Part shown: one piece after another, positions 5,036 through 62,386 of the stretch | Layout: the number at the start of each line of letters is the position of its first letter | Numbering within the stretch: the stretch's first letter is position 1 | Origin: Acidimicrobiia bacterium | GTDB lineage: Bacteria > Actinomycetota > Acidimicrobiia > Spongiisociales > ZC4RG35 | NCBI GenBank assembly: GCA_035513335.1 | Contig: DATKCE010000031.1 | Coordinates: 20,971-84,970, forward strand | Reading direction: 5' to 3' | Length of the DNA: 64,000 bases | The notes under the pieces: generated by a model | Seen by the model: the letters and a program-made list of their open reading frames with translations, nothing else | What the model was told of the DNA's origin: nothing | Databases searched by the model: none | Made by a program: the position numbers and the translations under genes

Positions 5036-5917
5036 ATGCGGATCGTGGCGGTCCTCGTTGCGACAGTGGCCCTGGCGGCGTGCACAGCCGGCTCCGATGC
5101 GGGACCGGTGACTTCGACGGTGACAGGCGAGACGACGATGGCTCCCACCACCACGACCACCACCGCCCCGGCGACCACCACCACTATCATTCCCACTACC
5201 ACGACCACGAACCGGTTCGCCCGCCCCGAATGGTTGGGCACACGTCCCCTTCCGCTACGTCCCGATGGCCACGGCGAGACCGAGCCCACACCGGACGAGC
5301 TGGTGGACCGTCGACTGGCCACCATCGACCTGCTGGATCCGCCCGCGTCGTCGCGGTTCGAGAGCACCATCGAGCTGCTACCCCCCGATGTCCTGGTCCG
5401 CTCCAGCTGGCGGGACGATTGTCCCGTGGGGGTGGATGACCTGCGCTACCTGACCGTGAGCCACTATGGCTTCGACGGGGAGTTCCACACCGGAGAGATG
5501 ATCGTCAACGTCGCCGTGGCTGAAGACGTGGTCGACGTCTTCGCCAGACTCCACGAGGCGCGATTTCCCATCGAGCAGATGCGGGTGATCCGTGCGGACG
5601 AGATCGACGATCATCCCACCGGAGACTGGAACGAGACCACGTCGTTCGTCTGTCGACCCGCGGTGGGCTCGTCGAATTGGTCACAGCATGCCTTTGGCCT
5701 GGCCATCGACGTCAATCCCTTCCACAATCCCTATCTCAAGGGAGATCTGGTGATCCCGGAACTGGCCTCGGCCTACACCGACAGGGACCACGTGAGACCG
5801 GGCATGCTCGTCGATGGTGACGTCGTGGTGGAGGCCTTCGCCGAGATCGGCTGGACCTGGGGCGGCGACTGGAACAGCCTCAAGGACTGGATGCACTTCT
5901 CCCTGACCGGCCGGTAG
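5036..5917 (+). CDS. peptidase M15 family (D-Ala-D-Ala carboxypeptidase-like) lipoprotein
   Basis: Signal peptide with lipobox LAAC; Thr-rich linker; zinc-ligand motifs SQHAFGLAIDVNP and WGGDWNSLKDWMHF typical of the VanY/M15 family. Confidence 0.8.
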   Translation: MRIVAVLVATVALAACTAGSDAGPVTSTVTGETTMAPTTTTTTAPATTTTIIPTTTTTNRFARPEWLGTRPLPLRPDGHGETEPTPDELVDRRLATIDLLDPPASSRFESTIELLPPDVLVRSSWRDDCPVGVDDLRYLTVSHYGFDGEFHTGEMIVNVAVAEDVVDVFARLHEARFPIEQMRVIRADEIDDHPTGDWNETTSFVCRPAVGSSNWSQHAFGLAIDVNPFHNPYLKGDLVIPELASAYTDRDHVRPGMLVDGDVVVEAFAEIGWTWGGDWNSLKDWMHFSLTGR

Positions 5918-5926
5918 GAAAACGAT

Positions 5927-5963
5927 GGGGGGGGGGCAGCTGTCGCCCGACCGGCGTCTGTTT
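5927..5963. repeat. upstream copy of the imperfect direct repeat flanking dnaE2 (G10 tract + CAGCTG-N4-CCGACCGGCGTCTGTT)
   Basis: G10 at 5927..5936, then CAGCTGTCGCCCGACCGGCGTCTGTT; matches 9451..9476 at 22 of 26 positions. Confidence 0.6.
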
Positions 5964-6068
5964 GAGCGAGCCATCGAGCTGGTGGCGCTGGTACTGAACT
6001 GAGCGGTGTTCCCGCGGCGCGGGCACGAGGTGTCTTGGGACCATGCTCAAAGTCGGGCGACACTATAC

Positions 6069-6082
6069 CGAACATATGTTCG
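6069..6082 (+). promoter_or_regulatory. LexA/SOS box (Cheo-box type) overlapping the dnaE2 start
   Basis: perfect 14-bp palindrome CGAACATATGTTCG (GAAC-N4-GTTC core); one mismatch from TCGAAC-N4-GTTCGA; encloses the in-frame ATG at 6076. Confidence 0.6.
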
Positions 6083-9000
6083 ATATAGTGGGGTGGGTGG
6101 CCCGATACGCCGAGCTCCACTGTCATACCAACTTCTCCTTCCTCGACGGGGCATCGCACCCGGAGGACCTGGTGCAGCGGGCGATGGACCTGGGCTATGA
6201 GGCGCTGGCGGTGACCGACCACAACGGTTTCTACGGAACCTCGCGGTTGTGGCAGGCGGCCAAGGAGACGGGGCTGGCGGTCATCTACGGGGTGGAGATC
6301 TCATTGGAGGCCGACCCCGGCGGTGACCCCAACCCCGTCTCTGGTGCCGAGGAGTGGGACCGGAAGCGTCATGCCCGGAGCAAAGGTGGCCAGGGCCGGT
6401 TGCGGCGGGGTCGATCGATTCGCTCCCACGGTGTCAAGCCGACCCGTCTACCCGAATCGGATCACCTGGTGCTGCTGGCGGGGTCCCCCGACGGCTACCG
6501 GACTCTCTCTCATCTCGTCACCAAGGCGCAGATGCGGGGAGAGAAGGACCATCCGGTCTACACCTGGGACGACCTCGCCGTGGCCGCCACCAACCGGGAC
6601 GTCCACGCCCTCACGGGCTGCCGTCATGGTGCGGTACCCAAGGCGACCTCCGAAGGCCTGGTCGCGGTGGTGAGGGAGACCTCCCGGCTGCGTGAGATGT
6701 TCGGTCCCCGGCTCCACATGGAGTTGTGGCATCACGGCATGCCCGAGGACGACTCCCGCAACGACATGATCTGGGAGGTGGGTCGGAAGCTGGGTGTCTC
6801 GACGGTGGCCACCAACCAGGTGCACTATCACGACCGCTCCGACGCCGACCTGTCCGAGGTGCTGGCCGCGATCGGCGGCCGGAGGACACTGGCCGAGGCC
6901 GATGGGTTCCGGCCGGCCACAGACGAGCGCTACCTGAAGCATCCCAAGGAGATGGAATGGCGATTCTCCCGCTATCCGGGGGCGGTGGAGCGCAGCGCAG
7001 AGCTGGGCCGACGGCTCGCCTTCGACCTGGCCCTGGTGGCCCCCCGGCTTCCGGACTTCCCCATGCCGGGGCATTTCCGCGACGAGATGGGCTATCTCCG
7101 CCATCTCACCTGGGAGGGGGCGAGAGAGATCTATCCAGGATCGGGCCACGGCGTCGCCCCGGCCGCTCGCCGCCGTCTCGAGTACGAGCTCGACATCATC
7201 GAGAGGCTGGGGTTCCCCGGTTACTTTCTGGTGGTCAAGGATCTCGTCGACTTCTCCAGGGAGCAGGGGATCTATTGCCAGATCAGAGGGTCGGGGGCCG
7301 ATTCGGCGGTGTGTCATTGCATCGGGCTGACCCGGGTCGATCCGATCAGGCTCCAACTCCCGTTCGAGCGGTTCCTCTCGGAGGAGAGGGGAAAACCACC
7401 CGACATCGACGTCGACTTCGAGGCAGACCGTCGCGAGGAGGTGATCCAGTATTGCTACCGGCGTTACGGAAGAGAACGGGCGGCGATGGTGGCCAATGTC
7501 ATCACCTACCGAGCCCGGTCGGTGCTCCGTGACGTGGCCAAGACGTTCGGCTTCACCCAGGCTCAGGTCGACGGCTTGTCGAAGTACGTCGACAGCCACG
7601 ATCCGGCCCAATTGCGTGACATGGACATCTCGTTGCCCGAAGGGATCACCTCCGAGATGATCTACGACATCTGCTGGCGGCTCGACGGCTTTCCCCGACA
7701 CCTCGGCATCCACTCCGGGGGAATGGTGATAGCCGACCGGCCCCTCTGGCAGGTGGTGCCACTCGAGTGGGGGCGGATGGAAGGTCGCACGGTCATCCAG
7801 TGGGACAAGGACGACTCGGCCGCGGTGGGCATCGTCAAGTTCGACCTGCTCGGCCTGGGGATGCTCAACGCCCTCCACCTGGCCACCGACCTGGTCGAGG
7901 AGACCCATGGTGTCGAAATCGACCTGGCCCGGATCGCCCAAGAGCCGGCGATATACGAGTCGATGACTCGAGCCGACACCGTTGGCCTGTTCCAGATCGA
8001 GTCGCGTGCCCAGATGGCCACCTTGCCCAAGATGAAGCCGAAGACCTTCTACGACCTGGCCGTCGAGGTGGCACTGATCCGGCCGGGCCCGATCCAGGGT
8101 CAGTCGGTCCACCCTTACCTGCGGCGACGCAATGGTGAGGAGCCGGTTCGCTACCCGCATCCGACCACTGAGCCGATCCTGGAGAAGACCCTCGGCGTGC
8201 CCATCTTCCAGGAGCAACTCATGGAACTGGCCCGGGTCTGCGCCGGTTTCGACGGCTCCCAGGCCGACCGGCTCCGCCAGGCCATGACTCACAAGCGATC
8301 AGCCGAGGCGATGAGCAGACTGCGCGACGAGGTGTATGCCGGGATGGCGTCGAACGGGATCACCGGTCCCGCGGCCGACGAGATCTGGGAGAAACTGCAG
8401 GGTTTCTCGAGCTTTGGCTTCCCGGAGAGCCACTCGGTGAGCTTCGCCTACATCGTGTACATGTCGGCTTGGCTCCGCTTCCACTATCCGGCCGAGTACC
8501 TGGCAGGTCTGCTCAACGCCCAGCCCATGGGCTTCTACAGTCCGAATTCCCTGGTCCAGGATGCGCAACGGCACGGAGTGGTAGTGCTCGCGCCATGCGT
8601 CAACCTCTCTTGGCACGATTGCACGATCGAACCGGTGGACACCGATCCCGACGACGTGGTCTCTCATCTCGGCCAGGAGTGGCGGCGGGGGAGGGGCCAC
8701 GTCGCCGACCCGCTTCGCCCTGCGGTGGCGGTACGCATGGGTCTCCGCTACGTCCGCAACCTGGGGGAGAGGGAGATCACCCGGATCGAGGCGGCCAGAA
8801 TCCTGGGCGGCGAGTTCAGCTCACCGGAGGACCTGGCCTCTCGCTCCGGTCTCGATGTGGCGGCGCTGGAGGGTCTGGCCGCGTCGGGAGCGCTCGGATC
8901 GGTGGGTCTGGGCCGACGCGAGGGTCTGTGGGCCGCTGGTGCGCTGGCCGAGATCGACCCTGAGCGGCTCGCACTGTCTCCGGGGGTGGATGCGCCCACC

Positions 9001-9414
9001 CTGCCGGGGATGACCGATGAGGAGAGCCATCGGGCCGATCTCTGGTCGACATCGGTGTCCACACGGCATCCGATGAGTTTCGTTCGGGATCGGCTCGATG
9101 GCTGTCTCACCGCGGCGGAGGCTCTCGAGGTGCGTCACAACCGGGCCCGGGTCAAGGTGGCCGGAGTGGTCACCCACCGACAGCGGCCCGGGACGGCGCG
9201 CGGTGTCTATTTCCTCAATCTGGAGGATGAGACCGGTCTTCTCAACATCGTGGTGCTCCCCGACGTGTGGGCCCGGCACCGTCGCGTCGTGCGCAAGAGC
9301 CCCGCCCTGGTGATCCATGGCCGTCTCGAGTACCACGACGGGGTCACCAACATCGTCGCCCGTGCCTTCGAACCGATCGGGGTGCAAACGGTCCGGTCAC
9401 GGGATTTCAGGTGA
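6076..9414 (+). CDS. dnaE2: error-prone DNA polymerase (DNA polymerase III alpha-subunit paralogue)
   Basis: PHP-domain start YAELHCHTNFSFLDGAS, polymerase core and OB-fold C-terminus. Track ORF starts at 6043; ATG 6076 and GTG 6088 are alternative starts. A basic low-complexity insert (EADPGGDPNPV...RSKGGQGRLRRGRS) lies in the PHP domain. Confidence 0.9.
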   Translation: MFDIVGWVARYAELHCHTNFSFLDGASHPEDLVQRAMDLGYEALAVTDHNGFYGTSRLWQAAKETGLAVIYGVEISLEADPGGDPNPVSGAEEWDRKRHARSKGGQGRLRRGRSIRSHGVKPTRLPESDHLVLLAGSPDGYRTLSHLVTKAQMRGEKDHPVYTWDDLAVAATNRDVHALTGCRHGAVPKATSEGLVAVVRETSRLREMFGPRLHMELWHHGMPEDDSRNDMIWEVGRKLGVSTVATNQVHYHDRSDADLSEVLAAIGGRRTLAEADGFRPATDERYLKHPKEMEWRFSRYPGAVERSAELGRRLAFDLALVAPRLPDFPMPGHFRDEMGYLRHLTWEGAREIYPGSGHGVAPAARRRLEYELDIIERLGFPGYFLVVKDLVDFSREQGIYCQIRGSGADSAVCHCIGLTRVDPIRLQLPFERFLSEERGKPPDIDVDFEADRREEVIQYCYRRYGRERAAMVANVITYRARSVLRDVAKTFGFTQAQVDGLSKYVDSHDPAQLRDMDISLPEGITSEMIYDICWRLDGFPRHLGIHSGGMVIADRPLWQVVPLEWGRMEGRTVIQWDKDDSAAVGIVKFDLLGLGMLNALHLATDLVEETHGVEIDLARIAQEPAIYESMTRADTVGLFQIESRAQMATLPKMKPKTFYDLAVEVALIRPGPIQGQSVHPYLRRRNGEEPVRYPHPTTEPILEKTLGVPIFQEQLMELARVCAGFDGSQADRLRQAMTHKRSAEAMSRLRDEVYAGMASNGITGPAADEIWEKLQGFSSFGFPESHSVSFAYIVYMSAWLRFHYPAEYLAGLLNAQPMGFYSPNSLVQDAQRHGVVVLAPCVNLSWHDCTIEPVDTDPDDVVSHLGQEWRRGRGHVADPLRPAVAVRMGLRYVRNLGEREITRIEAARILGGEFSSPEDLASRSGLDVAALEGLAASGALGSVGLGRREGLWAAGALAEIDPERLALSPGVDAPTLPGMTDEESHRADLWSTSVSTRHPMSFVRDRLDGCLTAAEALEVRHNRARVKVAGVVTHRQRPGTARGVYFLNLEDETGLLNIVVLPDVWARHRRVVRKSPALVIHGRLEYHDGVTNIVARAFEPIGVQTVRSRDFR

Positions 9415-9450
9415 TATGGCCGGCCAGTCGTACACCTACAGCGGGCGCGG

Positions 9451-9484
9451 CAGCTGCGGGCCGACCGGCGTCTGTTCTGGGGGG
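9451..9484. repeat. downstream copy of the imperfect direct repeat flanking dnaE2
   Basis: CAGCTGCGGGCCGACCGGCGTCTGTT followed by CTGGGGGG (G6), starting 37 bp after the dnaE2 stop. Confidence 0.6.
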
Positions 9485-9579
9485 TGATCTCAGATTGCTA
9501 TGACGCTGTCTCGGTGTGAATGCCCGGCAGCATCCAGGCTGAGGGTCTGGCAGGCAAGCGCCAGAAGTCGGCCCGCCAT

Positions 9580-10200
9580 CTAACGACAGTTGAAGATGTC
9601 CCAACCGCCCCCGTGGTAGACCTCCCACGCCGCGGCGGCGGTCGATGCCTCCGGGTCGATGGCATCGATGCCCCCGAACCCGGCCTTGGCGGCCCTCTCG
9701 TCCCAATAGCGTGGGAGATGGTTGTACAAGCCCACCCCGCCGGTGCGGGCATCGACGGCGTCGGGGTCGAAGCGTGACTCGCACCAGGCGATGCGCACGG
9801 CGCGGTTCACGTCCTGGGGCTCGAAGTAGAGACTGGCCAGGGCCCGGACCTCGACCTCCGACAGCCAACCGACGGTTGGTGACGTGATGGGGGTGGAGGA
9901 CGACTCCGCTTCCTCGTCCACGACGACGCTCTCGGCTTGGGAGTCGGCCGTGTCAGCGGACTCTGCGGTGATGGCCACCGCGGCAGTGGTTCCGTCATCG
10001 CCGAGCAATGCGAAGTTGAGCCCTGCATAGGCACCGGCGGTGTGTCCGATGGCGGCGGCCACAGCATCGGCCTGCACCTCGTCGGGATCGGCTCCAGAGG
10101 TACCGAACGCGGCAAAGCCGGCGATGGCCAGCAGTGCGACGGCTGCCCACCCAGCGACAAATGAGAGACGTTTAGAGCGCATCCAGTTTCTTGACTCCAT
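9580..10200 (-). CDS. secreted transglycosylase-like (lysozyme-like SLT domain) protein
   Basis: N-terminal signal anchor; C-terminal IAWCESRFDPDAV ... GLYNHLPRYW resembles SLT/lytic transglycosylase folds. Ala/Thr/Asp-rich linker. Confidence 0.55.
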   Translation of the reverse strand: MESRNWMRSKRLSFVAGWAAVALLAIAGFAAFGTSGADPDEVQADAVAAAIGHTAGAYAGLNFALLGDDGTTAAVAITAESADTADSQAESVVVDEEAESSSTPITSPTVGWLSEVEVRALASLYFEPQDVNRAVRIAWCESRFDPDAVDARTGGVGLYNHLPRYWDERAAKAGFGGIDAIDPEASTAAAAWEVYHGGGWDIFNCR

Positions 10201-39845: not shown

Positions 39846-41892
39846 GCAGCCACCAGGTGTCCATGCCCGAGTAGGCGAGACTGCGCCTGAGGGCGCCGCG
39901 TGCTCCTTCGATCATGGCGTTGGCCAGCTGGTCGGGCTCGTCGACCACCTGGTGGCGTCGGTATGCCTGGTCGACGGTGTGGTCGCCGATCCCGATACCG
40001 ATGACGGTAGTGCCGGAGGCTTCGATGGACTCCACCGAGGTGGTCAGCGCATCGACCGACCCGCGGGTCATCCCGTCGGCGAGCACCATCAGGATGCGGA
40101 CGTCGGCTCCTAGCCGCCCCATCCGCTCAGCGGCGTGGACCACATTGAACTCGTCCACGTTGGCCGCTTTCTCGAACAGGGACACCGGAGGAGCGGAGCG
40201 CGCGTCGCGGCGGGCGAGGGTGGCTGCGCGTCGCGGGTTCATCGCCGTGAAGAAGAGACCGGCCAGTGTGCTCTGCGAGTCCCGCCAGCGACGGTCGAAG
40301 GGCTTGACCATATAGTGATTCACCGTCGAGGTGAGCCGGTCCGCCGCCGACCCTTGCGAACGTTTCAACCCCGCAGTCGCCGCCGACCGACTCCGGACAT
40401 AGCTCTCCTCGGAGTCGTCGGGCCGGGCGGCAAACCCCCGATTGAACAGAGCCACCTCGAAATCGATCTGGAGCTCGTTACAGAGCCTGGCCATGCTCCA
40501 TGCGCCGAGGACCGCGGCGGGCATCGCCCATTGAGTCCCGGCGTGAGCCTTGCGGCCGGGGCTTAGCATGGATGCCGACCCGTCGACGAGGAGGGAGACC
40601 GCATAGCGTCGCCTGGTCCGTGATGCCCTGCGCTCGTAGAGACGCTGATAGAGCCCGGCGCCGATGAAGAGCGCGGCGTGTGGCGAGACGTCGCCCTGGT
40701 CGAAACCGGAGCGCAAACCTCGGCGCTGGTTGGCTGCGAACAGAGGGAACAGCTCTCCGGAGACGTGGCGCTGGTCGACAGCCCATCGTTTGGATGCCTC
40801 GGCGATGGCTTCGGTGCCCTCCGCGCCGAAGCCGGCGAACGCGGCCGGGATCGGGGTGACCACGAGCTTTCCGCCCTGGCCGGTGGGGAGGAATACCTCC
40901 GGTGCCTGGCTCACCCGGAGCAGCTGGTTCGTCGACTCGTCGTCGGCCACGTCCGATGCCCCTTTGCGATCGGAGGGACCTGATCGGGCATCGGCGGCCC
41001 TCCTGGCGTTCTGGTACGACTCGGTGTCGGTGACGATGGGCGAGATGAGGCGGACACTGTCGACCCCCTCCGCCGCCTTCTCCGCGTCCATCTTCTGTGC
41101 CGACTTGCGCTGGGCGCCGCTGGCCGTCTCCGGCACCTCGGTCATCAAGCCGTTGGCCCTGGCGATGGCCTCCAGTTCGAGGGCGAGTTGGGCGACGTAC
41201 CACGGGTCCTCCGAGGCCGCCGCCTCTTCGCAGTGGCCGGTGGCGTCGGCCAGGGCTACCGCCGCCCTGGCATCGAAACGCTTCTCGAGGACTTCGCGCT
41301 CGACATATCCGGCGGTGAGGAGGAAACACCCCAGCACGAACTGGCTGAGGGCCCCCGACCGGGCGATCGCCTGGCTGAGAGAGGACAGGTACAGGTCCTG
41401 GAGCACCGAGCGCGCCCCGGGATAGTGGGAGAGGCCGTGGGCCTCCTGACGGGCGTCCTCCAGGGAGAAGAACAGGACTTCCGCCACCGGCCTCTCCGTT
41501 CGCTCCAACGCAGTGAGCAGGTCTACCTCGGCATCGGTCTTCAACTCGCTGTCGACTGGCCAGTCCTCGGGCAGGGTGCGCACCTCGTCGAGGTTGGTGG
41601 ACACCAGGTGCATGACCTCGTGGAGCGCCGACGCCAGGGCCACCTCGTCAGGGGTAACGGGGGCACTCCGGTGGTAGGCCGCCTGGAAGATCCGGGGGTC
41701 GCAGGTGATCTCGTCCGGTGAAGACGACGACTCAGGCCCGAGCCGCACCCTCAGATTCGGGTTCTCGGAGAGGCTCCTGGCGAGACGGGTCACGGCAGGG
41801 GCAACTCGCTGATATCGGCCCACCACGGCCTCGATGGCCTGGTCTTCGGGGCCGATCAGGTCGGTCAGGAAAGTCTGTTCGCGTGCGCGCAC
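39805..41892 (-). CDS. VWA-domain protein (CbbO/NorD/CobT-like partner of the AAA ATPase)
   Basis: C-terminal VWA with MIDAS LLVDGSASM ... ILMVLADG; large N-terminal helical region containing an HEVMH (HExxH) motif. Confidence 0.8.
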   Translation of the reverse strand: MRAREQTFLTDLIGPEDQAIEAVVGRYQRVAPAVTRLARSLSENPNLRVRLGPESSSSPDEITCDPRIFQAAYHRSAPVTPDEVALASALHEVMHLVSTNLDEVRTLPEDWPVDSELKTDAEVDLLTALERTERPVAEVLFFSLEDARQEAHGLSHYPGARSVLQDLYLSSLSQAIARSGALSQFVLGCFLLTAGYVEREVLEKRFDARAAVALADATGHCEEAAASEDPWYVAQLALELEAIARANGLMTEVPETASGAQRKSAQKMDAEKAAEGVDSVRLISPIVTDTESYQNARRAADARSGPSDRKGASDVADDESTNQLLRVSQAPEVFLPTGQGGKLVVTPIPAAFAGFGAEGTEAIAEASKRWAVDQRHVSGELFPLFAANQRRGLRSGFDQGDVSPHAALFIGAGLYQRLYERRASRTRRRYAVSLLVDGSASMLSPGRKAHAGTQWAMPAAVLGAWSMARLCNELQIDFEVALFNRGFAARPDDSEESYVRSRSAATAGLKRSQGSAADRLTSTVNHYMVKPFDRRWRDSQSTLAGLFFTAMNPRRAATLARRDARSAPPVSLFEKAANVDEFNVVHAAERMGRLGADVRILMVLADGMTRGSVDALTTSVESIEASGTTVIGIGIGDHTVDQAYRRHQVVDEPDQLANAMIEGARGALRRSLAYSGMDTWWLRATDFQDKETAIA

Positions 41893-41975
41893 AAGCCGTT
41901 CATTGTCTCATGCCTCGTCAAGCGACTCACATCGACCCTTCTGCTTTCGCCGCCGATACCTATACCCTGCGCCGC

Positions 41976-43232
41976 GTGCACTACGACTTCACCACTCTTC
42001 CCAACGGCCTGAGGGTGATCACCGAGCCGATGCCGTCTCTCAGGTCGGTGGCGATGGGCTGTTGGATCGACACCGGCACCAGGGACGAGAACGGGAACGA
42101 GGCCGGAGTCTCTCACTTCCTCGAGCATCTGTTGTTCAAGGGCTCGGAGAAGCTCTCCGCCCGCGAGGTCAACGAGACCCTCGACGCCATCGGAGCGGAA
42201 TCCAACGCGTTCACGTCGAAAGAGGCGACCTGCTACTGGACGCGTCTGCTCGACCAGGACCTGGCCGTCGGGTTGGACGTGTTGGCCGAGATCATCCAGC
42301 GGCCCGCGTTCCGGGTCCGCGAAATCGACTCGGAGCGCCAGGTGGTGGTGGAGGAGATCAACATGAACGAGGACGACCCGTCCGACGTCGTCTTCGAGAA
42401 CTTCACCACCGCCGTGTTCGCCGGCCATCCTCTCCAGGAACCGGTGCTCGGGACCCGGGAGTCGATCCGGGCAATGACCCGGGACGACATCCATGGCTAC
42501 TGGAAGCGTCGCTACGGGACCGGCTCGTTGGTCGTGGCCGCGGCCGGCTCGATCGACCACGAGAACGTCGTCGAGATGGTGGCTGAGCGTTTCGGCGACT
42601 GGTCCGGTGATCTGGTGGACCATCAGAGTCGGCCGGCCCAGGTCGTTCCCACGGTGAACCTGACCAGACGCGAGACGGAACAGGCCCACCTGGTTCTCGG
42701 CGGCCCCGGTCTGGCCCGGAGCGACGAGCGTCGTTGGGCCTTCGAGGTGCTCAACCACGTCATGGGCTCGGGAATGTCGTCGCGGCTGTTCCGTGAGGTA
42801 CGTGAGGAGCGGGGGCTTGCCTATGCGGTGTACGGGTTCAAGCTCGCCTACTCCGACAACGGGGCCTGGGGTGTCCACGTCGGAACCACCCCTCATCAGA
42901 CGGACACCGCCCTGAACGTGATCCGCGACGAGCTCACCAAAGTCGTGGAGGAAGGGATCACGCGCGAGGAATTGGAGCGGGCCAAGGGCTCGATGCGGGG
43001 CGGTCTGGCACTGTCCCTCGAGGACGCCAACAGTCGGATGGTCCGTCTCGGCCGTGACGAGCTCGCCGGGATGCCCCATCTGTCGGTTGACGAGCGTCTG
43101 GAGAAGCTGGACGGCGTCGATCTCGACATGGTCAGGTCGGTGGCTACGGACGTCTACGGCGGCCCCGTCAGGGTGATGGGCGCGGTCGGCCCCTTCGAGG
43201 AACACGAGCTAGACCAATACTTGGAGGTTTGA
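41976..43232 (+). CDS. M16-family zinc peptidase (insulinase-like)
   Basis: HxxEH inverted zinc motif HFLEHLLFKGS. GTG start at 41976 (VHYDFTTLPNGLRV) preferred over the track start. Confidence 0.85.
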   Translation: MHYDFTTLPNGLRVITEPMPSLRSVAMGCWIDTGTRDENGNEAGVSHFLEHLLFKGSEKLSAREVNETLDAIGAESNAFTSKEATCYWTRLLDQDLAVGLDVLAEIIQRPAFRVREIDSERQVVVEEINMNEDDPSDVVFENFTTAVFAGHPLQEPVLGTRESIRAMTRDDIHGYWKRRYGTGSLVVAAAGSIDHENVVEMVAERFGDWSGDLVDHQSRPAQVVPTVNLTRRETEQAHLVLGGPGLARSDERRWAFEVLNHVMGSGMSSRLFREVREERGLAYAVYGFKLAYSDNGAWGVHVGTTPHQTDTALNVIRDELTKVVEEGITREELERAKGSMRGGLALSLEDANSRMVRLGRDELAGMPHLSVDERLEKLDGVDLDMVRSVATDVYGGPVRVMGAVGPFEEHELDQYLEV

Positions 43233-43384
43233 GTCGATGGCGGCCCGACTTTGCCGGGCTGCCTCCAGGGCAAATGGTTTAGACGTCTGGGGGAGTCACC
43301 CAAAGTCGGCGATCTGAGACCTGAGTTCGTCCGGCAAACAGGCGCCGGTCGGGCCGCAGCTGCCGCGCCCGCAGGAGGTGCCGT

Positions 43385-43735
43385 TCAGTTCCCGAAGCTG
43401 AATTCCATCGACATGGGCTTCTCGCCGATGTTGACGGTGCCGGCCAGGGGGTCGGCGGGACGCTCGATGACCAATGCGCCGCCGAGATCGTGGATGCCGT
43501 CGGAGGAGGGCCAGCCCAGGGTCTTCACGGTGGAGACGTTGCCGGCCAGCGAGGTCCAGAGGATGGAATGGTGCGATTGGGTGAGGCGGATGAGAGTATC
43601 CGCCTCACCAATCGGCGACATGCTCTCGCCGGGTCCCCCTGCCGTGAAGACGGCGACAGCGCCCCCGGCTGCCGACAACGTCATCAGAGCGGCCAATCCC
43701 AGCCCGACGAGACGGTGTGTGATCACTCTCTGCAT
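43385..43735 (-). CDS. secreted hypothetical protein
   Basis: 116 aa with N-terminal signal peptide; no family recognised. Confidence 0.45.
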   Translation of the reverse strand: MQRVITHRLVGLGLAALMTLSAAGGAVAVFTAGGPGESMSPIGEADTLIRLTQSHHSILWTSLAGNVSTVKTLGWPSSDGIHDLGGALVIERPADPLAGTVNIGEKPMSMEFSFGN

Positions 43736-62324: not shown

Positions 62325-62348
62325 CCAGGGCCGGTATACCGGCCCTGG
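62325..62348. terminator. bidirectional hairpin terminator between convergent genes
   Basis: perfect 10-bp stem CCAGGGCCGG/CCGGCCCTGG with 4-nt loop TATA, 5 bp after the S10 stop and 39 bp before the opposing stop; flanking U-tract weak. Confidence 0.45.
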
Positions 62349-62386
62349 GGGATCCAAAACGAGTCCCGAGCCTGGGTGCGTGGAGA

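Follow-up and report, generated by a model that had tools for sequence, protein, structure and literature searches.

Direct repeats flanking dnaE2 in an Acidimicrobiia genome are probably independent members of a dispersed, hairpin-forming repeat family

Introduction

The gene dnaE2, which encodes an error-prone DNA polymerase (ImuC), lies in a 64,000-nucleotide stretch of contig DATKCE010000031.1 from an Acidimicrobiia bacterium (assembly GCA_035513335.1); this whole stretch is referred to here as the window. dnaE2 is bracketed by two imperfect direct repeats, which a preliminary description, made from the letters of the DNA, took as the borders of a single-gene mutagenesis cassette inserted or excised at them, its fallback being a repeat family spread over the genome that flanks the gene by chance. 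We describe the locus, the repeat unit and its occurrence in related genomes, and conclude, with a probability of roughly 0.83, that the two copies (A and B) are independent members of a hairpin-forming repeat family dispersed in Acidimicrobiia, of which a third member (C) lies elsewhere in the window, and that they are not the borders of a dnaE2 cassette.

Results

The dnaE2 locus and its repeats

The genes and repeat units concerned are the following, with scores from covariance model R1, a model of the long class of units that has A, B and C among its seeds.

5036..5917, plus strand: M15_4 peptidase gene, upstream neighbour of dnaE2 (Pfam PF13539, E 4e-23); stop codon TAG at 5915-5917, 9 nt before unit A
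5926..6070, plus strand: unit A, long class (82.7 bits, E 6e-19; a seed member, which accounts for part of the score); its arms pair when the unit is folded as DNA
6069..6089, plus strand: predicted LexA-type SOS box CGAACATATGTTCG at 6069-6082, then a -10-like TATAGT at 6084-6089; starts 7 nt past the end of unit A
6097..9414, plus strand: dnaE2, between units A and B and not a part of the repeat family (Pfam, NCBIfam, homologues)
9415..9432, minus strand: possible 3'-end remnant of an oppositely oriented unit (TATGGCCGGCCAGTCG, compare ATGGCCGGCCGAC), adjoining the dnaE2 stop; tentative, by eye
9440..9585, plus strand: unit B, long class (110.2 bits, seed member); orthologous units at loci L001 and L014 of relatives
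9580..10200, minus strand: SLT-like gene, convergent downstream neighbour (weak Pfam SLT match, E 8e-4, under the curated cut-off); stop overlaps the tail of unit B
43231..43373, minus strand: unit C, long class (core pattern search; 111.9 bits, seed member)

The core of copy A reads CAGCTG-TCGC-CCGACCGGCGTCTGTT (5937-5962, plus strand), with a run of ten G (G10, 5927-5936) directly on its 5' side, and that of copy B reads CAGCTG-CGGG-CCGACCGGCGTCTGTT (9451-9476, plus strand), with GCGGGCGCGG on its 5' side (9441-9450) and CTGGGGGG on its 3' side. These positions and the direct orientation are as first described, as is the content of the segment between the copies, which holds only dnaE2 and its SOS box, and the identity of the neighbours as a peptidase and a transglycosylase (by Pfam, an M15_4 peptidase and a weak SLT-like protein). 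The core match, first counted as 22 of 26 positions, is 23/26, TCGC and CGGG having a G in common. CAGCTG of copy B does begin 37 nt past the dnaE2 stop (TGA, 9412-9414), as had been stated for the repeat, but its G-rich leader already begins at 27 nt. A repeat finder lengthens the pair to 34 nt at 85% identity.

Allowing up to three mismatches, the core pattern occurs three times in the window, against a chance expectation of 0.00 (100 shuffles). The third copy (43337-43362, minus strand, one mismatch) is 34 kb from dnaE2 and lies between unrelated genes, so that the A/B pair is not exclusive to dnaE2. Searches of the 64-kb window with the covariance model and, independently, with nhmmer returned exactly three units, A, B and C.

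Anatomy of the unit

The 26-bp motif is merely the 5' end of a unit of 110-165 nt (about 145 nt in round terms). The unit begins with the leader GCGGCAGC, continues through a 9-bp stem, the bulge CGGCGTCTG, a second stem and a variable interior, and ends with the 3' arms that complete both stems and with a (C/A)ATCA tail. Stem 1 has 9 bp with variable outer positions, stem 2 has at least 8 bp starting TT/AA, and the bulge consists of 9 invariant nucleotides on one side only, the 5' arm. The partner arm (...AA-GTCGG-x'-(C/A)ATCA) lies about 60, 80 or 103 nt downstream of the motif and is complementary to its variable positions; the four nucleotides first written as N4 are therefore no spacer and form the covarying outer part of the stem. 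Interiors fall into three discrete size classes, and A, B and C all belong to the long class, whose interior carries the conserved motifs GUGAnUCCCC and GGAGGCA. Their parts are as follows.

Unit A: leader, G10 (5927-5936) plus CAGC; stem-1 5' arm TGTCGCCCGAC, 5941-5951; bulge CGGCGTCTG, 5952-5960; stem 2, TTTGAGC (5961-5967) with GCTCAAA (6045-6051); stem-1 3' arm GTCGGGCGACA, 6052-6062
Unit B: leader GCGGGCGCGGCAGC, 9441-9454; stem-1 5' arm GCGGGCCGAC, 9456-9465; bulge, 9466-9474; stem-2 5' arm, 9475-9480; stem-2 3' arm CCAGAA, 9561-9566; stem-1 3' arm GTCGGCCCGC, 9567-9576; tail CATCTA, 9577-9582
Unit C: leader, 43359-43372; bulge CGGCGCCTG, 43339-43347; stem-1 3' arm, 43240-43249; arms GCGGCCCGAC with GTCGGGCCGC

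The G-runs that had been pointed out beside both cores are present, but they are not separate signals: G10 is a derived form that replaces the leader GCGGGCGCGG, seen in unit A alone (1/48 aligned long units), and the G6 run sits within the stem-2 5' arm of unit B. The G10 run, some 130 nt upstream of the SOS box of dnaE2, could be slippage-prone. When the three copies are aligned with their flanks, the leaders of B and C share a longer sequence, CACCTnCnGCGGGCGCGGCAGCTGCGG. Many full units are trailed by a second, partial 3' arm (CAGTCGGCCxGCAATCA).

If dnaE2 were a single-gene mobile cassette capable of excision, the direct repeats would be attL/attR-like or attC-like sites left by site-specific integration, and two direct copies with an identical 16-nt core around exactly one gene and its SOS box are what one would expect to see. 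Each copy, however, is the end of a separate, complete hairpin unit and has a covarying partner arm within that unit, 100 nt off, and a third such copy stands in an unrelated context. Identity between units A and B is only 49%, their longest exact match being 16 nt, and B is nearer to C (61%).

Covariation of the stems

The stems were assessed on an alignment of 48 long-class units pre-selected for partial pairing, which inflates the percentage of paired cells and does not inflate the double-change counts relative to slid controls. RNAalifold returned 19 pairs, 11 of them with compensatory double changes, and 96.6% of the cells were paired on this structure, a figure inflated by the pre-selection. 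Double-change cells numbered 106, against 26 +/- 4 in shuffles (0/500 shuffles reached 106), and sliding the partner by 1-3 columns left at most 23. Across the 95 distinct arm combinations of the stems, G.U (33) and A.C (37) were about equally frequent. Since G.U is no commoner than A.C, the pairing is not that of an RNA read from a single strand and is like that of a DNA palindrome or of a hairpin formed on both strands. Folded locally, the 26-36-nt motif with its immediate flanks had an energy no better than shuffles (z +0.4 to +0.8), its true partner lying about 100 nt downstream.

A covarying long-range helix with conserved unpaired nucleotides could also belong to a strand-specific structured small RNA or a cis-regulatory RNA, for example a regulator of dnaE2, and such a role would suit the long-class interior motifs and the position of unit A, which ends 7 nt short of the SOS box of dnaE2. 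We consider this very unlikely. There is no preference for G.U pairs, and no orientation bias with respect to transcription (in tandem gene contexts, 23 co-oriented and 32 anti-oriented units). Rfam 15 gave no match over the whole window at gathering thresholds and none on units A and B at E<=10 (5900-9620), and no conserved promoter was visible by eye in the listed unit flanks, on which no promoter scan was made. Moreover, none of the relatives carries a unit upstream of dnaE2, and the unit is therefore not part of dnaE2 regulation in general.

Dispersal across Acidimicrobiia

We scanned species-representative genomes (one per species) with the pattern GGCAGC-N4-8-CCGACCGGCGNCTGTT; loci outside the window are labelled L001 onward throughout. 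At least 117 stretches were found in more than 40 assemblies, with several per metagenome-assembled genome (MAG). Among the matches listed, nearly all were from MAGs of Acidimicrobiia, Acidimicrobiaceae or Actinomycetota, or from MFD bins named 'Acidobacteriota' that are apparently mislabelled, and the eight in other phyla were without a convincing partner arm. Within this scope the family is specific to Acidimicrobiia. Tandem arrays of 2-6 units with a period of 140-170 nt occur at L023, L066, L075 and L103. No unit was found in a scan of viral contigs, and a full-text literature search that included the core sequence, with little coverage of subscription journals, returned nothing on the family. 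With the third copy in the window, this dispersal speaks against a cassette specific to dnaE2 and bears out the fallback of the preliminary description, whose interpretation is in this sense partly supported.

Bins named 'uncultured Acidobacteriota bacterium' (L008, L010, L019, L020, L022, L023 and others) carry full units, and one DnaE2 homologue, 85% identical, is labelled 'Acidobacteria bacterium'. The MFD-bin 'Acidobacteriota' records are probably mislabelled Acidimicrobiia.

Placement beside stop codons

Genes around the units were called by a simple method based on GC content at third codon positions (GC3), which matched the database calls around dnaE2 and failed on the M16 peptidase gene at 41718-43232; the orientation statistics rest on it. 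Among 120 units classified, 37 lie between convergent genes, 23 in tandem contexts co-oriented with the genes, 32 in tandem contexts anti-oriented, and 4 between divergent genes. The 5' end of a unit typically falls 13-36 nt past the stop of the same-strand gene. At the other end, in 26/57 cases, the 3' tail lies between -3 and +5 nt from the facing gene's stop codon, and it often supplies that codon. Units thus accumulate in short gaps beside stop codons, in either orientation. The units of the window are placed in this way: unit A occupies the gap from the M15 peptidase stop to the dnaE2 SOS box, the CATCTA tail of unit B ends in CTA, which serves the SLT-like gene on the opposite strand as its stop codon, and unit C sits at the convergent stops of an M16 peptidase gene (ending at 43232; Pfam M16) and a 116-aa open reading frame (ORF; 43385-43735, minus strand), its tail region adjoining the TGA of the former. 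At L147, L149 and L179, a minus-oriented unit or remnant begins with TAATGGCCGGCCGAC exactly at the dnaE2 stop.

Such placement raises the alternative that the units are structures maintained by the host, acting as bidirectional terminators, as protectors of mRNA 3' ends or as sites for a host protein that reads the bulge, spread by duplication and recombination and kept by selection. The strong enrichment at stop codons and in convergent gaps, the near absence from divergent promoter regions and the use of either orientation, as in a palindrome, would all follow from it. Convergent terminators, in contrast, would need neither the shared 16-nt core, leader and tail, nor three size classes, nor arrays of 3-6 units, and no U-tract follows the hairpin on either strand. 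Related sequences at unrelated loci argue instead for copying from a common source, that is, for proliferation.

Turnover at orthologous gaps

Comparison of orthologous gaps showed that units are gained, lost, inverted and truncated fast between close relatives. In the gap between dnaE2 and the SLT-like gene, the unit at L002:13363-13507 is on the minus strand, opposite to that of the window, and metagenome loci carry three plus and three minus units there. In the gap between the M16 peptidase gene and the 116-aa ORF, L128:3796-3940 is a full plus-strand unit, opposite to unit C. Opposite orientations at two orthologous gaps (the loci compared being L002, L128, L130, L142, L147, L151, L179 and L199) therefore point to repeated independent insertion or to inversion of whole units. 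At the unit C site, L126:3755-3780 and L127:3383-3442 hold remnants of different length next to an identical flanking protein. In these and other remnants (those in the dnaE2 / SLT-like gap of L149/L150 and at L002:9937-9971), the 3' arm and tail are nearly always kept and the 5' part is lost; the retained part is the portion that overlaps the stop codon of the facing gene. Such decay within one population argues against structures that the host maintains, and so do the many relatives whose corresponding gaps are free of units, in some cases with the stops 1-4 nt apart.

A TA target-site duplication that had been considered for unit B (9415-9416 and 9581-9582) was rejected, as it is not shared by L001.

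The dnaE2 locus in relatives

Relatives were located by way of their DnaE2 homologues. In the closest assembly (L001, GCA_964645875.1), DnaE2 is 99% identical, the downstream unit is present in the orientation of the window, and there is no upstream unit. Identity between the window and L001 is 94.7% on one flank and 96.4% on the other, and only 5919-6066 is replaced. L002-L004 (DnaE2 92%) have a collapsed remnant in a 77-nt upstream gap and a downstream unit in the opposite orientation, and L005 (DnaE2 90%) has no unit upstream and none recognisable downstream. The order peptidase / dnaE2 / SLT-like gene / aminotransferase is common to L001-L005. At L123-L125 (DnaE2 81-86%), the order dnaE2 / SLT-like gene / DHquinase / LplA is kept with convergent stops 1-4 nt apart and no unit. 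dnaE2 is therefore in place in relatives with one unit (L001, L002) or none (L005, L123-L125), which is contrary to what borders of a cassette would predict.

Searching metagenomes with the SLT-like protein yielded 80 loci; in 26 of them dnaE2 is directly convergent. A unit occupies the dnaE2 / SLT-like gap in 6/26, three per orientation, and none lies upstream of dnaE2 in any of the 26, nor was a full upstream unit seen in any relative examined. The remaining gaps are 6-25 nt long, or hold unrelated terminator-like hairpins or 5'-truncated unit remnants. No deletion allele with the peptidase next to the SLT-like gene was present in the 23/80 loci checked with the neighbour-gene set. What could be said for a mobile gene is that the distant dnaE2 / SLT-like junction is variable: at eight distant loci (L154, L165, L172, L190, L192, L194, L196 and L197) 1.4-3.5 kb is inserted between the two genes, and about 15 loci lack dnaE2 in the sequence at hand, including L164, L183, L184 and L191 (5.5-6 kb). 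At the junctions without dnaE2 we found genes for histidine kinase, JmjC, HNH/DUF222, cupin and FtsH-like proteins, with the ABC transporter / LplA / DHquinase synteny kept on the left. Homologous recombination between A and B was considered as a route to loss of dnaE2 and judged unlikely, given a longest identity of 16 nt, 49% identity overall and no deletion allele in the loci checked.

In place of unit A, L001, L005 and L014 have a different structured spacer (L001:9862-9992, L005:9865-9993, L014:1009-1132) of about 115 nt, with an outer inverted repeat TTCCTAATGCA...TGCATTAGGAA and two GGGCCGG(A/T)ATA(T)CCGGC palindromes (DNA fold z = -5.3). It had no matches at other loci, and one related palindrome, the perfect 24-bp CCAGGGCCGGTATACCGGCCCTGG just past a stop codon, lies at 62326-62349 of the window. 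This spacer and the palindrome may represent a second small repeat family.

dnaE2 and its neighbours

The dnaE2 product has the full domain set of a Pol III alpha subunit (Pfam PHP, DNA_pol3_alpha, finger, HHH_6 and OB) and scores 1272.8 bits with the NCBIfam model NF004225 'error-prone DNA polymerase' (cut-off 939), against 699.6 bits with the DnaE1 model NF004226, under its cut-off of 1002. Homologues with a source name are all annotated as error-prone DNA polymerase or as the alpha subunit of DNA polymerase III, and the majority belong to MAGs of Acidimicrobiia or Actinomycetota. The start is ambiguous (ATG at 6043, ATG at 6076 or GTG at 6097): homologues are 1105-1112 aa long, orthologues are annotated with different starts (giving 1105, 1112 or about 1120 aa), and translation from the ATG at 6043, the longest ORF, would span the SOS box. 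The box CGAACATATGTTCG, which we take to be a LexA site from the known actinobacterial LexA consensus, contains a GAAC-N4-GTTCGATATAGT block that is unchanged in L001, L002 and L005. From the succession of SOS box, TATAGT and GTG at 6097, dnaE2 is probably leaderless; its -35 position, which falls within the 3' arm of unit A, is different in each of the relatives.

The GC3 of dnaE2 (0.82) lies within that of its neighbours (0.79-0.86), so that its composition gives no signal of insertion, and among 21 window proteins scanned, which are part of the window's genes, there was no recombinase, integrase or Y-family polymerase. To our knowledge, dnaE2 of Actinomycetota is usually a solitary SOS-regulated gene located away from imuA'/imuB, and dnaE2 standing alone is therefore not evidence of insertion. 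The SLT-like gene is its conserved partner in relatives. Taken together, these comparisons show dnaE2 as a vertically inherited chromosomal gene, an old resident with its own SOS-box promoter.

Among the other genes, the M15 peptidase gene contains at 5132-5208 an imperfect tandem repeat with a 24-nt period that codes for a low-complexity linker rich in Thr and Pro (TTTTTTAPATTTTIIPTTTTT). In the M16 (pitrilysin-family) peptidase gene (41718-43232), the longest ORF has 504 aa; its homologues have 417-440 aa, and its true start is therefore probably about 190-260 nt downstream.

Discussion

The headline of the preliminary description, insertion or excision of a single-gene cassette at direct repeats, is refuted by both observations that the description itself had named as refuting it: the repeat is dispersed, and relatives keep dnaE2 at the same locus without it. 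In our judgement there is next to no chance that it is correct. The units play no role in moving dnaE2, both of whose flanking gaps merely happen to be occupied in this lineage. The family is best read as a new REP/MITE-like family (repetitive extragenic palindromic sequences; miniature inverted-repeat transposable elements), allied to known kinds of repeat and yet new, since the sequence and size features of REP and those of attC do not fit, Rfam has no match and the literature search returned nothing. Under this interpretation, the units would proliferate as selfish, non-autonomous DNA of the REP, ERIC, Correia or MITE kind, an enzyme supplied in trans may recognise the hairpin and its invariant bulge, and insertions past stop codons would be tolerated because a hairpin there does no harm or even helps, by terminating transcription or stabilising 3' ends.

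Several observations weigh against units of this mobile kind, whose mobility we infer. Around some 120 units, in stretches of 8 kb, there was no transposase, no RAYT gene and no longer autonomous element with the same ends, and no target-site duplication or clean junction between filled and empty sites could be defined, because partial extra arms blur the boundaries of the units. The folding energies of single full units are no better than those of shuffles (z -0.1 to -1.6; 66% GC), although the basal stems were recovered; the case for structure therefore rests on covariation, single-sequence energies being not significant at this GC content. The arms of unit B (9456-9465 / 9567-9576) and those of its orthologue at L001:13357-13499 form a compensatory pair, CGGG/CCCG against CAGG/CCTG, and among the matches listed, more than 40 species-level MAGs show no variation in the bulge or in the pairs that close it. 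In relatives, moreover, the dnaE2 / SLT-like gap often holds another hairpin. These features look more like selection for a host function than like pure parasitism.

Two further results of the same search concern autonomous relatives. No 5' motif had a 3' partner 0.5-3 kb away (about 120 units), and the ORFs between four inverted pairs of units (L044, L063, L079 and L110) are housekeeping-like as judged from their translations, the long ORF of L044 being YcaQ-type-like by eye only. 

Maintenance by the host draws real support from these same compensatory changes, which keep the stems even between orthologous copies, from a bulge that is the same in many species, and from the unrelated terminator-type hairpins in the same convergent gap of relatives, which suggest that the position favours a hairpin. 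The stem of unit B is maintained in place, its gap being 81% identical overall to that of L001 where the flanking genes are 96% identical. A pure host-function explanation nevertheless cannot explain the shared core, the size classes and the tandem arrays, and we hold it to be unlikely as the whole account. The two explanations would in any case overlap, since REP elements, like those of the ERIC and Correia kinds, are mobile and co-opted alike. A more specific proposal, which we put forward tentatively and consider doubtful, is that the units are an undescribed type of hairpin element, recognised through an invariant, one-sided CGGCGTCTG bulge between freely covarying stems, which a single-stranded-DNA enzyme (Y1/RAYT-like or other) would copy beside stop codons, which would be kept across the class Acidimicrobiia as a bidirectional terminator or 3'-end hairpin, and whose arms would stay complementary through selection or self-templated repair.

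Among known systems, REP/BIME and the ERIC/Correia MITE-like repeats are the closest by behaviour, and MIRU are the closest by phylum. (i) REP/BIME. Like the REP sequences and BIMEs of Enterobacteria and Pseudomonas, the units are extragenic imperfect palindromes in many copies per genome, with covarying stems and conserved unpaired nucleotides, are enriched past stops and in convergent gaps and rare in divergent ones, and are found facing either way, at times clustered or arrayed in tandem. REP sequences, however, are 20-40 nt long with a conserved 5' GT[AG]G, whereas the units have 110-165 nt, a 5' GCGGCAGC, the unpaired CGGCGTCTG as a 9-nt one-sided bulge and a long variable interior in three size classes. 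REP/BIME are mobilised by the RAYT Y1 transposase, and no RAYT gene flanked by units was found here in the 8-kb stretches; RAYT genes are usually single-copy. (ii) ERIC/Correia. ERIC/IRU (about 127 bp) and Correia/NEMIS (about 105/155 bp) are similar in length, in having conserved inverted ends around a variable centre, in their size variants and in their preference for transcribed gaps near gene ends. There is no sequence similarity, and their terminal inverted repeats are fixed, whereas the terminal arms of the units vary and covary and carry an invariant asymmetric bulge on one arm; a TA or other target duplication and a parent insertion sequence are not demonstrable for the units. By the standards of MITEs in general, inverted terminal arms are present, with outer positions that vary and covary, and none of the roughly 120 units led to an autonomous element with these ends. 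(iii) MIRU. MIRU, the best-known intergenic repeats of Actinomycetota, share with the units the phylum, the location in gaps of compact operons, the tandem arrays and ends that overlap flanking stops. They are direct tandem units of 46-101 bp, oriented with the operon and containing short ORFs, whereas the units described here are long covarying hairpins found in both orientations.

(iv) Integron attC sites and attL/attR islands. The likeness lies in direct repeats, each within an imperfect palindrome, that flank a single gene. dnaE2, in contrast, has its own promoter and SOS box and occurs without the repeats in relatives, the repeats are genome-wide, and the scanned proteins include no integrase. 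Nor are the copies attC sites: after ...CTGTT they read TGAG, CTGG and TGCC, with no GTTRRRY core. The only attI-related Rfam match, AAC_AAD_leader, falls within dnaE2 (6625-6715, minus strand) and scores 19.8 bits (E 0.8), where the cut-off is 56 bits. (v) The imuA-imuB-dnaE2 'mutagenesis cassette'. With it the locus shares a bona fide DnaE2 and a LexA-type box upstream; that cassette is an SOS operon and not a mobile unit.

Our analysis thus provides no evidence here for an SOS mutagenesis polymerase that travels as a one-gene cassette. It points instead to a seemingly undescribed repeat family whose hosts, the Acidimicrobiia, are abundant in soil and water and almost wholly uncultured. Repeats of this kind break short-read assemblies and MAG contigs, and they mislead annotation, both between genes and at the starts and stops of genes, several units supplying or overlapping stop codons; the covariance model R1 could be used for masking or for a census of the units. 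Differences between populations in the presence or absence, orientation and truncation of units make them markers of very recent divergence, and the units may shape transcription termination in these compact genomes.

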